From: a virus
Taxonomy: Duplodnaviria; Caudoviricetes
Virus record (IMG/VR): IMGVR_UViG_3300034101_006325
Coordinates: 136,304 to 200,303 of that record
Length of the DNA stretch: 64,000 nucleotides
Reading direction: 5' to 3' (one strand)
Shown: positions 2,045 to 60,604 of the stretch, in pieces
How positions within the stretch are numbered: position 1 is the stretch's first letter
Layout of the letters: each line of letters opens with the position of its first letter
The notes under the pieces: generated by a model
Told to the model about the DNA's origin: nothing
Seen by the model: the letters and a program-made list of their open reading frames with translations, nothing else
Database searches by the model: none
Program-made: the position numbers and the translations under genes

Positions 2045-5000
2045 TCAGTATCCTTCAATTGTTACAAAATATTGGTCATAAGTAACTGCTGATACATTAT
2101 TTTGCCTTCTTTTATAAACAACATTTCCATTTGTGTCTAACCTATCAACAAGCTGATTATTGATGGCAAATCTGAGTGTTTCTGAGTCTGTTTGAATTTC
2201 ATCAACAAAAAAATCATCTGGATCAAATAATATATGGAATACTCTATCAAACTTTCTTATCTTTAACGTATTGTTGACTAATTCGCTAGGATTAATAGTT
2301 AAAAATGTGCTATTTGCTATTAATTTTTTGGTAGAGACGTTATTTGTATTCGTTGTTGGCGGATTAAAGAGTTGAGTCAATGTGGGTGGAGTTTGTACAA
2401 ATGAAGGACTTGATGTTGCTGTAGGAATTGAAGAAAAATTATCATAGATATTTTCATTAAAATCTACATCTGACAAGTATTTCAGATATTCTTCTGCAAT
2501 AAAACTATCAATGTGATTATTATTAATTTGATCAATAACGTCGCTCGATAAAAATGAATAATCTTGCAAAATATTTTGTTGATATTCAGGTTCTAATGTT
2601 CCATTTTTGAAAAGCCTAAGACCAACTTTTCCGTTTGAATAATCGACTTGATAAAATGGGAAAGCTTGACGATTTAAATACGGAGGATTGTCTGACATAA
2701 GCACATCTTTTATGTTATGTGGAATTGTATCGTAATTTTTAAGAATTTTTGTAGGGAATCTGTCCATATCAAAAACATAAGAAATAGGCTTGTGTATTAA
2801 TGTGCTTAGAAAGTTATCTATTCTAAACAAATTTATTCTTATTATTGACGATAATTTCTTTGAATTATTCGGATTATATTGTGAGACGTTTGCAGATAGA
2901 TACCTCACCAAATTTTGAGGAATTCCAACCGACATTATCTTTTTGTTAAAAGAAACCTGTTCTGACCATTGTAGACCAGAATTAAACCATCTTTTTACAA
3001 ATAACTTCCAAGATACTAAAGAAGTGTCTTCTACTGGTAGATACCCTTCGAAAGTATTAGATTCTTTAAAGGAAGAAAAATAAAAAGTATCTTTTAAAAC
3101 TGATCTATCTGATCCTAAAGATGCATTTATGGCAGATTTAGAACGTTCATGCAGGTCTAAAAGCTTATTTTGTGTTAAAAGCAACTGCTCTTTTGTTATA
3201 AGATTTCTTTGGACCTGTGGGCCGCCTTCGCTTATTTTTGTTTCAAGGACAGCACCCATTAGATGAAAAATACTATTTTGCGTATTTGAAAGTATTTGTT
3301 TGAATTCATCAATTTGCTTTTTTAAACCTGCAACGTAGATAGCAAATCTATTAATATATTTTCTGTATAAATTGGCATAATTGTAAATTTTATTTTCACT
3401 GTTGACCATTACAGAATCAATTTTTAATCCACGAATTCCAGAAATTTGTTGATATTCTGATGGGGTAATAGTCTGAAGATCTTCGCTAGGAATAAATCCA
3501 AATTTTAATAAATCTTTGAAATTTGATTCTGTATTGGTTAATTTTCCTAATGAATTAAACTTACCAATTGATGCATCATAAATTTTACTTACAACAATAT
3601 AACCGTCAAATGAAACGATATCATATATTGCTTCAACATCTTGACCCACAACGTTTTTATAATCTACTATGTCTTTGTCAATAAATGATTTAACGTATGC
3701 TATTATTCTTTCTGGATTTGCTGCATGAACAATTAAACAACAAAGTTCAAATAAACCCGCCATAAAAGCTGTTCTTTGAATTCCTGAATATTGTGTAATA
3801 TAATCGTCTGAAGTTGTTTCTGGTTCATTTTTAAAAGGCGAATTGTACTTAGTAGTAATAATTCTTTCTGACTTCTTTTTAAATTTAGTAACTGAAAGTA
3901 TACTCAGCATCATTCTTGCTATGTTGTCAAGTATTGGTAAATTCCCTCCGCTAGACTTTAAATAATCTCTAATATCTTTTAATGTATGAAGTTTATTTGT
4001 GTCTAAATCGTCGGATTTAAGATCTGCTCTTTTTGATAAATTTTTATCTACTTCTTCTTTTTTTAATTGTGCTATTGTAGTAGAAAGTCTACTATAAATT
4101 TTCTCTGCAATTAATTCCTGAAATGTAAAAAAAGTCGTCTGATTGTTTAAGGTTATTGAATTAACAACAGACTCTGAAAATTTGGATCCGTTGATTCTTA
4201 AAGCAACATACAAAAAAAGCAGACTTCTAAGCTTTGGATCGCTCATTGATTTTGATATTAAAACTGCGCTGAAGTCTTTAAAGGCACCTACAGGCTGAGA
4301 AGTAATATAGCCTTCTTCATAATTTTCATTTCTTTTAAGAAGGTGAGACGGAGATAAAACTTCATTTTCAATTTTTCTTATCAAAACAATTGGTCTTGAA
4401 AAAGAATTAAAAGGATCATTATCATAACCAGAATTTTGTCCATTCTTAAATTTACTTAAATTTAAAACTTTTTCGCCAAGTGATCTATAGGGTCTTGGGT
4501 ATTGATCAAATGACATTTTCCCTGCAATCATTGACAACATTTTATAATTATTTCCCAGCCTTGACTGTAGTTTGCTGATCCTAGATGTGTCAAAACTAAA
4601 ATTCGAATATCTTAATGAACTTTCAATGTAATAATAAAAACCGGGTGAAAGTATTGCAAGTCTATCGGATGAACTGTTATCGCTAAAAATGTCGTCTCTT
4701 AAAAATTTATCTTCAAATGTTAGAACTTCAGTATTGTCATCCTCGACAACTTGGGACAAACTAATTAAAGAATTTTTATTACCGAGCGGGGTTGAATCAA
4801 TGTCTGTTATATCCTTTCCTGGCTGACCAATGAGATAATCCCATATATCTGAAAAATTTTCTTTATTACTTGGATAACCAAAATTATCAAGAATTCCTTG
4901 ATCCATATTGTTTGAGAATGACAACTCTTGACAGAGTAAATTTGATAATTTTGCTATAGAAGTTTCAATATCTTCTTCGGATGAAAAAACGGGCTCATTA

Positions 5001-10872: not shown

Positions 10873-10900
10873 ATATTATGCTTAAACAACAAAGTGTCAA
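10873..10900 (-). promoter_or_regulatory. Sigma70-like promoter for phoH
   Basis: TTGACA-N16-TAATAT on the minus strand just upstream of the refined start. Confidence 0.5.
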
Positions 10901-10927
10901 GTTTGTAATTTGAATTTAACTGATAAG

Positions 10928-11194
10928 ATGAAAAACAAGAAGCTAAAGATCATTCAAACAAACGAGACATGCTATAATCTTCATGAAAGACACAATGTGT
11001 CTTGTCACAAAAAGACTTGTAGTAGCTGGATTAACTATTCAGAATCTAAGAACTGTGCAATAATTGCTTCAAAGTCAGGTCCAAAGACCCTGCAAGAAAT
11101 TGGCAAGATCTATGGCCTGACTCGAATGAGAATCTGTCAAATAGAAAAAAATATCTACGAAAAAATAAAAAATATAATTCAAAATAATTTATGA
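10928..11194 (+). CDS. Stand-alone sigma-70 region 4 (HTH) protein with Cys-rich N-terminus
   Basis: TLQEIGKIYGLTRMRICQIEK matches the RpoD 4.2 consensus TLEEIG..FGVTRERIRQIE; 4 Cys upstream. ATG 10928 preferred over TTG 10910. Confidence 0.8.
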   Translation: MKNKKLKIIQTNETCYNLHERHNVSCHKKTCSSWINYSESKNCAIIASKSGPKTLQEIGKIYGLTRMRICQIEKNIYEKIKNIIQNNL

Positions 11195-11474: not shown

Positions 11475-11678
11475 TCACTTATTTTCTTGCTTAGATGATT
11501 TTTCAAGTTCAATTGTAAGCTTGACGAGCTCTTTTGATTTTGTCTGAAGAGCTCTCAAACCTTTTCTAGCTCTAACTCCAGCTGCTGAAACGCCTCTTGC
11601 ATTTTTTGCAATATCAACTTCTAAAGCTTCAACTAAAGATTTAAGCTCATTCCACTTTAATAACACGTCATTTTCCAT
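11475..11678 (-). CDS. Histone H1-like nucleoid protein (Hc1 family)
   Basis: ELKSLVEALEVDIAKNARGVSAAGVRARKGLRALQ matches the Hc1 core (D..K...GN.AAG.RARK...L); SD GGAG. Confidence 0.75.
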   Translation of the reverse strand: MENDVLLKWNELKSLVEALEVDIAKNARGVSAAGVRARKGLRALQTKSKELVKLTIELEKSSKQENK

Positions 11679-59284: not shown

Positions 59285-59575
59285 TTAGTCACATTTGTCT
59301 TGAAGACTATGCAAAATGTCTGCAATTGCACTCTGGAATTCAGGCGATCGTGCGACGTTTTTAATTCTTTCGTCTGAAAGACCCAAGCTCCACCTTTCAT
59401 CAAATTCTTCGGCAAATTTATTCATCACACGCAGGACATAATTCCTTGCAGAGGAATGATTCATGGTAAAACCTAGCTGTGTCATAATGTCGGCAATTTC
59501 ACGATAATTTACACCTTCGTCTTCGACGACTGTAGCATATCCTTTTGAAAATTGTGTGCCTTTTTTTACAACCAT
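59285..59575 (-). CDS. HTH DNA-binding protein, sigma region-4/ECF-like
   Basis: EGVNYREIADIMTQLGFTMNHSSARNYVLRVMNKF; ATG 59575 with SD GAGAGGA. Confidence 0.6.
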   Translation of the reverse strand: MVVKKGTQFSKGYATVVEDEGVNYREIADIMTQLGFTMNHSSARNYVLRVMNKFAEEFDERWSLGLSDERIKNVARSPEFQSAIADILHSLQDKCD

Positions 59576-59576
59576 T

Positions 59577-59807
59577 TTAGTCCTCTCTATCGTAAATTCT
59601 AAATGTTTTGGCAAAACGATTCTGCTGAATACCCAACAATCTTTTATTCAAATCACCATGAATGTCTTGCTCTGGGTCTTTTCTAATTCTGTCCATTTTT
59701 AGAAAGATATTATTCAAAGACGCTGTAATATTTCTTAGAATATTAATTTGATAAATTAAGCATAATAAAATTAAAAAATTAACTAAAGTCGACACTAGAC
59801 TCAACAT
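59577..59807 (-). CDS. Small membrane-anchored protein
   Basis: N-terminal hydrophobic helix; TAATG overlap with the sigma gene stop. Confidence 0.6.
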   Translation of the reverse strand: MLSLVSTLVNFLILLCLIYQINILRNITASLNNIFLKMDRIRKDPEQDIHGDLNKRLLGIQQNRFAKTFRIYDRED

Positions 59808-60604
59808 TACCTCAAACCTTTACCTGAAATTATATCAAGTTTTTCTGTGTCTGTGACTGTATACAAAGTATCTTCAATATCTTCTGTTAGACCAAATCGA
59901 AGTCTTAAAATTGCTGCTTCTTTAGCTGACAAATTTGAAAGAACATTTTTTACAACATTCATTAATTCTTTCTTTGCAAGAACTTCAAATGGATTTAAAT
60001 TTTCGTTAAGATCTTCTAATTTATCTTCAAGTGTTGAGTCTTCTGAATCAGAAAGAATTGGCTGATTAAGCGAAATTACATTTCTACCCGAATGAATTGT
60101 TGCCTTTACAACAGACTCAGAAACCTCAATCATAGAAGAAAGTTCTTCTGACGTAGGTTCAGAACCCATTTCATCCTTGTAATTGTTCATTGCTTCGATC
60201 ATTTTCCTTTGAGCCGAAGCAGCATGAGCAGGCAATCGAATAATCTTTTTTCGCTTTAAGACATATTGACTAATTGCCTGCTTAATCCACCAAGTCGCAT
60301 ATGTTGAAAAACGAAAACCTTTCTTCCAGTCAAATCTTTCGATTGCCTTGAGCAATCCTAGATTTCCTTCCTGAATAAGATCTTCTAGCGGAATGTTGTG
60401 GCTCTTCTGTTTTTTTGCAACATAAACAACCAGCCTAAGGTTGGACTCAGCCAATTTTTTGCGAGCACTAATAGACTCCTTGCCACCTTTTTCATATTTT
60501 TGAAAAAGATCAACAAGCTGCTCGTGTGTCAATTGTGGGTAGGATTGAAGAGAATTAAGATAGTTCGTAATTGAACTATTCGTATTTGTTATTTTTTCAA
60601 ACAT
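59807..60604 (-). CDS. RpoD-like sigma-70 factor lacking region 4.2
   Basis: Region 1.2 (NYLNSL..YPQLT), 2 (SNLRLVV..AKK, DLIQEGNLGLLKAIERFDWKKGFRFSTYATWWIKQAI), 3 (IRLP, SLNQPI), 4.1 (LSAKEAAILRLRFGL), then ends without the HTH; start refined to ATG 60604. Confidence 0.92.
   Translation of the reverse strand: MFEKITNTNSSITNYLNSLQSYPQLTHEQLVDLFQKYEKGGKESISARKKLAESNLRLVVYVAKKQKSHNIPLEDLIQEGNLGLLKAIERFDWKKGFRFSTYATWWIKQAISQYVLKRKKIIRLPAHAASAQRKMIEAMNNYKDEMGSEPTSEELSSMIEVSESVVKATIHSGRNVISLNQPILSDSEDSTLEDKLEDLNENLNPFEVLAKKELMNVVKNVLSNLSAKEAAILRLRFGLTEDIEDTLYTVTDTEKLDIISGKGLR

Follow-up and report, generated by a model that had tools for sequence, protein, structure and literature searches.

Sigma factors appear in textbooks as single polypeptides, and in the few split sigmas known to us, all ECF-like or T4-like, the division falls between domains 2 and 4. 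The stretch of viral DNA analysed here (the window), the terminal 64 kb of a record of 200,303 bp with a completeness of about 61%, raises the question whether an RpoD-like sigma might instead be broken within domain 4. It codes for a small protein resembling region 4.2 (10928-11194, plus strand) and, in a distant gene, for a sigma that ends short of that region (59807-60604, minus strand). The original prediction had proposed that the former is the missing half of the latter, and we re-examined this proposal using profile searches, structure prediction and the gene-neighborhoods of related viral genomes.

The smaller gene comprises 88 codons of protein, from an ATG at 10928 to a stop codon ending at 11194. 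Its product is recognized by the Pfam Sigma70_r4 model (PF04545) with an e-value of 1.6e-8 (34.3 bits; gathering cut-off 24.1) over residues 52-81, corresponding to profile positions 20-49 of 50, and in NCBIfam the same stretch matches the extreme C-terminus of the RpoD, RpoS, RpoH and FliA models. Matches to region 4 are the sole type obtained from either database; there is no region 2 on the polypeptide, and the helices of region 4.1 (PF04545 positions 1-19) are also absent, as the match begins at position 20. The ORF and the Pfam match thus agree with the earlier description of a stand-alone RpoD-type region 4.2 protein, whose helix-turn-helix (HTH; residues 52-88; 11081-11191, plus strand) is concordantly delimited by Pfam, the family profile, the helices of a structural model and solved sigma4 structures. 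In a joint alignment the 88 residues further run in parallel with the whole sigma4 domain of RpoD, which forms its final ~86 residues, and a cysteine-bearing head takes the position of region 4.1.

The sequence of the recognition helix is TRMRICQIEK. Since the profile of the family aligns with residues 571-600 of E. coli sigma70, T65-R66-M67-R68-I69-C70-Q71 of the small protein correspond to T583-R584-E585-R586-I587-R588-Q589, which upholds the residue mapping proposed earlier, including the replacement of E585 by methionine and of R588 by cysteine; the equivalents of R584, R586 and Q589 are retained. Genetic and structural data on sigma70 have established that R584, E585, R588 and Q589 contact the bases of the -35 hexamer. 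The two substitutions, which are invariant, predict an altered -35 specificity. Hence, while the small protein shares with the sigma4 domain of RpoD/SigA the region 4.2 HTH, in both sequence and structure, and the colinearity at the C-terminus, it differs from it in standing alone without regions 2 and 3, in bearing a four-cysteine head in lieu of region 4.1, and in the E585M and R588C changes.

The larger gene (59807-60604 or, with an alternative boundary, 60691; minus strand) encodes an RpoD-like phage sigma with regions 1.2 to 4.1 and a conserved non-HTH tail, which lacks the recognition helix. In this protein Pfam detects region 2 with an e-value of 5.8e-21, region 3 with one of 7.5e-9, and of region 4 just profile positions 1-18; it aligns with residues 329-576 of the 613 residues of sigma70 and stops about 35 residues short of the RpoD C-terminus. 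Because the small protein covers positions 20-49 of the region 4 profile and residues 571-600 of sigma70, the two proteins are complementary, and the small protein indeed holds, as had been claimed, almost exactly the segment that the sigma lacks. The relatives of this sigma form a large family of proteins of 260-290 residues without PF04545, in which region 4.1 is invariant (K.EA.IL.L.FG) and is followed by a conserved C-terminal tail of about 20 residues (Y.V[TS]..EA..I.SG.GLT). This tail contains none of the -35-contacting residues, although it can be loosely aligned with the start of region 4.2. We considered a frameshift, an intron or a lost exon as the cause of the truncation and rejected them because the entire family ends alike and with the same conserved tail; judged by this shared ending, the truncation is an evolved state and not a sequencing break.

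To assess how regularly the two genes occur together, as the original prediction had recommended for jumbo phages, we collected 80 viral loci with the small gene, the longest contig measuring 369 kb. The truncated sigma was recovered in 8 of the 15 long related viral records carrying the small gene and in all four of those whose completeness is 90% or more (289-369 kb), the records without it being fragments of 29-60% completeness. The window belongs to a clade of uncultivated jumbo phages of 300-370 kb. Each of the four near-complete genomes codes for one region 2 protein above the Pfam cut-off, namely the truncated sigma, and one significant region 4 HTH, namely the small protein; two polypeptides thus share out the functions of regions 2 and 4. 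The most divergent genome, G008, conforms to this pattern even though its sigma is just 37% identical to that of the window. Both proteins represent conserved families and not an accident of assembly. No homologue of a beta-type RNA polymerase subunit was found in the four near-complete genomes; hence, the core polymerase of the host must be used. The two genes are far apart, being separated by 49 kb in the window and by about 80-170 kb in its relatives, and belong to different transcription units.

A word-indexed search for the small protein retrieved 312 clusters of 80-95 residues with 50-95% identity, and an exhaustive profile search of 1.84 billion representative sequences yielded 407 members at 50% clustering, 96 of them with e-values of 1e-10 or better. 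With more than 300 clusters of close homologues, its conservation is far past chance. Among the best 150 of the 407 representatives essentially all are 41-146 residues long, and a Rosetta-stone search of these 150 found neither a second matched domain nor a length suggestive of fusion to a sigma. On these searches the family, with over 400 sequence clusters, is confined to phages and stand-alone. One further metagenomic protein, P0316, consists of 508 residues in seven near-identical repeats and matches the family profile with E=1.7e-12; it has a low-complexity appearance and is probably a translated DNA repeat and not a relative. The recognition helix distinguishes three subfamilies, with the signatures TRMR[IV]CQIE (that of the small protein), SFVR[VI]KQIE and the canonical TRER[VI]RQIE. 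Among close relatives of the small protein the RMRICQ.EK helix is invariant in genomes ranging from 30% to 56% GC. A tblastn search of the 50,697 deposited phage records in INPHARED returned no match for the small protein or for the SFVR subfamily; at least 33 of these records code for RpoD-like sigmas with an intact region 4.2, and none of those has the small protein, a negative correlation in favour of a split sigma.

The residues invariant among close relatives are C15, C26, C31, W34, N42, C43, G51, T54, L55, G59, L64, R66-M-R-I-C-Q71, E73 and K74; in the wider family this still holds for C15, C31 and C43, whereas the conservation of C26 is 90% or higher. The four cysteines (10970-11056 from codon C15 to C43, plus strand), delineated by the alignments and fold searches, are spaced as C-x10-C-x4-C-x11-C and presumably coordinate a metal, be it Zn or an Fe-S cluster. 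A zinc module formed by four cysteines and a histidine had been proposed earlier: its cysteines hold, being invariant in the close family, and its histidine does not, as the histidines of the head vary across the family alignments and none is conserved. The zinc-binding anti-sigma (ZAS) domain is defined by an H-x3-C-x2-C motif, which is absent from the small protein with its different cysteine spacing and unconserved histidines. WhiB-like (Wbl) proteins, which bind sigma4, have a domain with a four-cysteine Fe-S site; the small protein has no match to the Pfam Whib family, and Wbl-sigma4 complexes were recovered in our fold searches solely through their sigma4 chains.

AlphaFold2 modeled the small protein with a mean pLDDT of 92.4 and a pTM of 0.72 when supplied with a diverse alignment of 145 sequences, which raised the head from the pLDDT of 50-60 obtained with close homologues only. 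The model comprises a helix at residues 15-21, a knuckle-like stretch near C26, C31 and W34, a second helix at 44-49, and the HTH helices at 55-62 and 66-87. Searches with Foldseek and an exhaustive VIA-align comparison superimposed the HTH on sigma4, LuxR and ECF domains over 34-47 residues with rmsd values of 0.4-2.7 Å, the range for sigma4 structures being 1.0-2.7 Å. Every match to a sigma4 or other HTH structure covers residues 52-88, with low-Z matches extending back to about residue 31. The head fold has no known counterpart outside the family in the searches of pdb, pdb_via_wide, afdb_clusters and atlas, and the complete fold was found only in unnamed small AFDB proteins and viral ESM Atlas clusters, including an AFDB cluster of 258 residues that bears it at the N-terminus. 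The small protein is thus predicted to fold autonomously, as a sigma4-type domain in which a head stabilised by a putative metal replaces region 4.1.

We also modeled residues 195-265 of the sigma together with the small protein and Zn, alongside three controls. This returned an ipSAE of 0.58 (0.55-0.60 over three runs) versus 0.01 for the best control, which we rate as weak support. Of 80 solved complexes 58 attain this ipSAE mark, as do 2 of 110 mismatched pairs, with scores of up to 0.60 coming from only 7 of the 80 solved complexes and from both mismatches that passed the mark. The contacts agreed by at least 94% between runs, with a pLDDT of at least 74 for the partner. Because sigma and small protein together look like an intact sigma4, their likeness to solved sigma4 structures may have added to the score. 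The complex prediction with the truncated sigma that had been suggested as a check thus lends weak support to the pairing.

As the small protein and a helix-less sigma occur together, these phages may assemble a sigma from separate pieces. Under this proposal, the single detected sigma of the phage, which keeps regions 1.2 to 4.1 and has lost the -35 recognition helix, would be used with the RNA polymerase core of the host; and the small protein, which we infer to bind RNA polymerase or the sigma, would read -35-type DNA in trans, so that the two polypeptides together would constitute one sigma factor with an altered -35 specificity. To this reading, a split sigma in which -35 recognition is supplied in trans beside a helix-less sigma on the host polymerase, we assign a probability of about 40%. 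The idea of a missing half survives in the complementarity of the two proteins and in their co-occurrence in all four near-complete genomes; it does not survive literally, since a domain predicted to fold alone (pLDDT 92) is not a missing half-domain and has no need of the orphan region 4.1 of the sigma. Further observations argue against a split sigma: the genes lie 49 kb or more apart in separate transcription units, unlike those of the known split sigmas; a different small gene, described below, is much more tightly tied to the sigma gene; and the wider family of four-cysteine sigma4 proteins is not limited to phages with a truncated RpoD.

The established two-subunit sigmas are SigO-RsoA, Sig7-Sig8 of Tn916, gp55-gp33 of T4 and gp33-gp34 of SPO1 (bioRxiv 10.64898/2026.10.01.756105). 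In Bacillus subtilis SigO-RsoA and in Sig7-Sig8 the region 2 and region 4 functions likewise reside on separate polypeptides, which are ECF-like, split between sigma2 and sigma4 and encoded by adjacent genes. The phage pair differs from them in that its larger part is RpoD-like and extends over regions 1.2-4.1, the break falls inside sigma4, the genes are at least 49 kb apart, and the small part has a metal head. The adjacency of sigO-rsoA and sig7-sig8 is not seen for the small gene, the neighbor of the sigma gene being instead an ORF at 59285-59614. The T4 gp55-gp33 and SPO1 gp33-gp34 pairs, which act in late phage transcription, combine a sigma devoid of sigma4 with a second small protein on the beta flap, and resemble our case in that a sister subfamily of the four-cysteine proteins occurs in phages with a gp55-like sigma. 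T4 gp33, however, is no reader of DNA and has no sequence relationship to the small protein, which keeps a complete and invariant recognition helix. Iyer et al. (2021; PMC7824862) noted in group 2 jumbo phages a "minimal sigma factor" that consists of a single HTH domain and is proposed to bind promoters and the beta flap; it is likewise a small one-HTH protein of phages without their own RNA polymerase, but neither a four-cysteine head nor pairing with a helix-less RpoD was described for it. Aquatic jumbo phages termed moraphages have also been described, with a sigma factor in their core but lacking RNA polymerase (PMC12619734). None of the split or minimal sigmas above unites a break of an RpoD-like sigma within domain 4 with a free-standing, metal-capped region 4.2, altered -35 contacts and unlinked genes.

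The gene context of the small protein bears on a different explanation, namely that it is an independent sequence-specific regulator, whose sigma4-derived HTH would bind operators such as that in its own promoter, and no subunit of a sigma at all. The locus has the order PhoH (minus), small gene (plus), Hc1-like histone (minus) and helicase (minus), which leaves the small gene as the lone gene on the plus strand; of the 80 loci, 79 have PhoH, 76 have Hc1 and 64 have the helicase. The adjoining Hc1 gene (11475-11678, minus strand) codes for a chlamydial-type histone H1-like protein (Pfam E=5.7e-10), which is unusual in a phage. Upstream of the small gene lies a promoter-like element (10882-10911, plus strand) consisting of TTAAACA (10882-10888), a spacer of 17 nt and TAATTT (10906-10911), the latter ending 16 nt 5' of the ATG. 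A near-consensus sigma70-type promoter facing phoH (TTGACA-16-TAATAT, 10 of 12 matches; 10873-10900, minus strand) overlaps the spacer of this divergent element. A heptamer of the form TT[GA][TA]ACA is present 5' of the small gene in 48 of the 80 loci versus 21 of 390 control windows, mostly followed by TAnnnT after 15-17 nt, and is rare in the remaining intergenic DNA of the two genomes in which we carried out promoter discovery, the window's own 200-kb genome G000 (30% GC) and its complete 369-kb relative G005 (56% GC). Such a distribution is expected of an operator, and the fixed gene-neighborhood with its own promoter-like region, the autonomous fold that is predicted and the divergence of the recognition helices by subfamily (TRMRICQ, SFVRVKQ and TRERVRQ), as in specific DNA binders, point in the same direction. 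The distance of 15-17 nt between the heptamer and TAnnnT fits a -35 element equally well, though, and a regulator would leave unexplained both the one-to-one association with a sigma that lacks exactly this helix and the invariance of region 4.1 in that sigma. We regard this explanation as possible but somewhat unlikely. Within the heptamer T..ACA is conserved, and variation is confined to the TTG half, the one E585 and R588 would contact; this is what the two substitutions would lead one to expect if the small protein read its own -35 element, a reading made post hoc.

A wider target of the small protein was not apparent from the promoter searches. The k-mer, dyad and anchored analyses of G000 yielded mostly AT-rich noise, and no genome-wide promoter class with a common -35 element was found in both G000 and G005, nor any clade-wide -35 motif. 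The only intergenic motif found to be common to the two genomes is nnGATACTTA, which is -10-like and has no evident -35 element. It occurs as TGATCGATACTTA or in the nnGATACTTA form just 5' of gene starts at 95799 in G000 (genome coordinates) and at 4742, 160397 and 187183 in G005. It is a candidate for a clade-specific -10-type promoter without a -35 element, and as such would be in keeping with a sigma that can do without a -35 reader. G005 further contains 13 sites of the form GTGAAA-N18-TAGGAT (loci L091-L109, e.g. G005:C1:59673-79000), 12 of which are followed by an ATG 5-8 nt on, suggesting that a group of clustered small genes yields leaderless transcripts. Since G000 has just 2 such sites versus 4.9 expected, this class is absent there and was rejected as a conserved target. 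In G000 we also observed the 8-mer TATATTTG, which corresponds to the Bacteroidota -7 box in its TAnnTTTG form; it is about nine-fold enriched in intergenic DNA (8 of 23 copies).

The neighbor of the sigma gene suggests another explanation, whereby the true substitute for region 4.2 is the product of the ORF at 59285-59614 (minus strand; probable start 59575, 96 residues), and the co-occurrence of the small gene merely reflects a shared core genome of the clade. This second small, conserved HTH-like protein belongs to a family of 96-109 residues with the core GYATV..DEGVNYREIAD.M.E.GF.MNHSSARNYVLRVM.KF, invariant from GVNYREIAD on, and is encoded 3' of the truncated sigma in all 88 of 88 loci. 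The family is confined to the truncated-sigma clade, being absent from the gp55-type phages, and is as conserved as the small four-cysteine protein. In G008 its start overlaps the stop of the sigma gene (TAATG), an arrangement typical of translational coupling. Its core resembles the end of region 4.1 and the HTH of ECF sigma4 domains, and its language-model neighbors in the Atlas are viral Sigma70_r4 clusters (0.77-0.86). With this linkage it is a strong rival or additional partner of the sigma, and as a candidate in no way inferior to the small protein. Its likeness to sigma4 is, however, not significant: the match to region 4 of SigR has an e-value of 0.19, a Pfam scan of 37 members of the family detected no HTH family, and an hhalign comparison with the four-cysteine family gave a probability of 3%. 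Nor would it explain why the sole bona fide RpoD-type region 4.2 persists as a separate invariant gene, and we consider this account unlikely. Between the two genes in the window is an ORF of 76 residues (59577-59807, minus strand) with a hydrophobic N-terminus, whose ATG overlaps the sigma stop (TAATG); tblastn recovered no match to it in related loci, and ORFs similar to it (DLN.RL..Q..FA) occupy the gap between the sigma and HTH genes in L187 and L190.

The distribution of the wider four-cysteine family bears on both the split sigma and a further alternative. The SFVR[VI]KQIE sister subfamily resides in phages of about 185 kb, whose only sigma-like gene matches the PHROG of T4 gp55-type late sigmas. 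According to the literature the gp55 family is devoid of sigma4, although the C-terminus of the gp55-like sigma of these phages looks HTH-like by eye. This clade may represent a generalisation of our proposal, with phage sigmas devoid of sigma4 accompanied by a sigma4 in trans; alternatively, the four-cysteine family may work independently of a truncated RpoD. Occurrence beside different kinds of sigma, RpoD-truncated and gp55-like, is also what one might expect of a mimic of sigma4, which would displace region 4 of the primary sigma of the host from the beta-flap tip or from -35 DNA by competition, thereby shutting down or redirecting -35-dependent host transcription, as an appropriator or decoy functionally akin to T4 AsiA or gp33. 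Distant members such as P0344, of the canonical type, are about 45% identical to true RpoD sigma4 domains and share the LRKLRHP tail with them (the identity in P0344 extending over 80% of the protein), and T4 gp33 offers a precedent for a small phage protein that replaces sigma4 on the flap. Yet a pure decoy would need no invariant DNA-facing helix that departs from the host consensus (E585M, R588C). The helices of region 4.1, which form much of the flap-tip pocket in solved holoenzymes, have moreover been swapped for an unrelated head, and neither Pfam nor PHROG indicates a likeness in sequence to AsiA, MotA or gp33; a mimic of this kind thus appears quite doubtful.

It is also conceivable, albeit very improbable, that one helix-less RpoD-like sigma core is served by interchangeable sigma4 modules in trans, namely the four-cysteine protein and that encoded at 59285-59614, whose exchange would retarget -35 recognition, with the metal site as a possibly redox- or Zn-sensitive switch. 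An appropriator or anti-sigma acting like T4 AsiA/MotA, the alternative raised in the original prediction, shares with our proposal a possible redirection of the -35 side during infection, but found no sequence support, as Pfam and PHROG gave matches to sigma factor families only and no AsiA or MotA occurs among the fold-search matches (a distant kinship being possible), and AsiA remodels the sigma4 of the host without replacing it.

The arrangement described here spans hundreds of protein clusters and genomes of 30% to 56% GC in widespread, uncultivated phages of 300-370 kb. If the small protein and the truncated sigma do not cooperate, the former would still establish a large, phage-specific family of DNA-binding proteins that derive from sigma4 and have a new head fold, and the latter would be a natural case of initiation independent of the -35 element. 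If, in contrast, they cooperate as a split sigma, domain sigma4 would be suppliable in trans, and the pair would provide a natural system for uncoupling -35 reading and flap docking from the rest of the sigma, as well as a compact, orthogonal promoter-recognition part for engineering.
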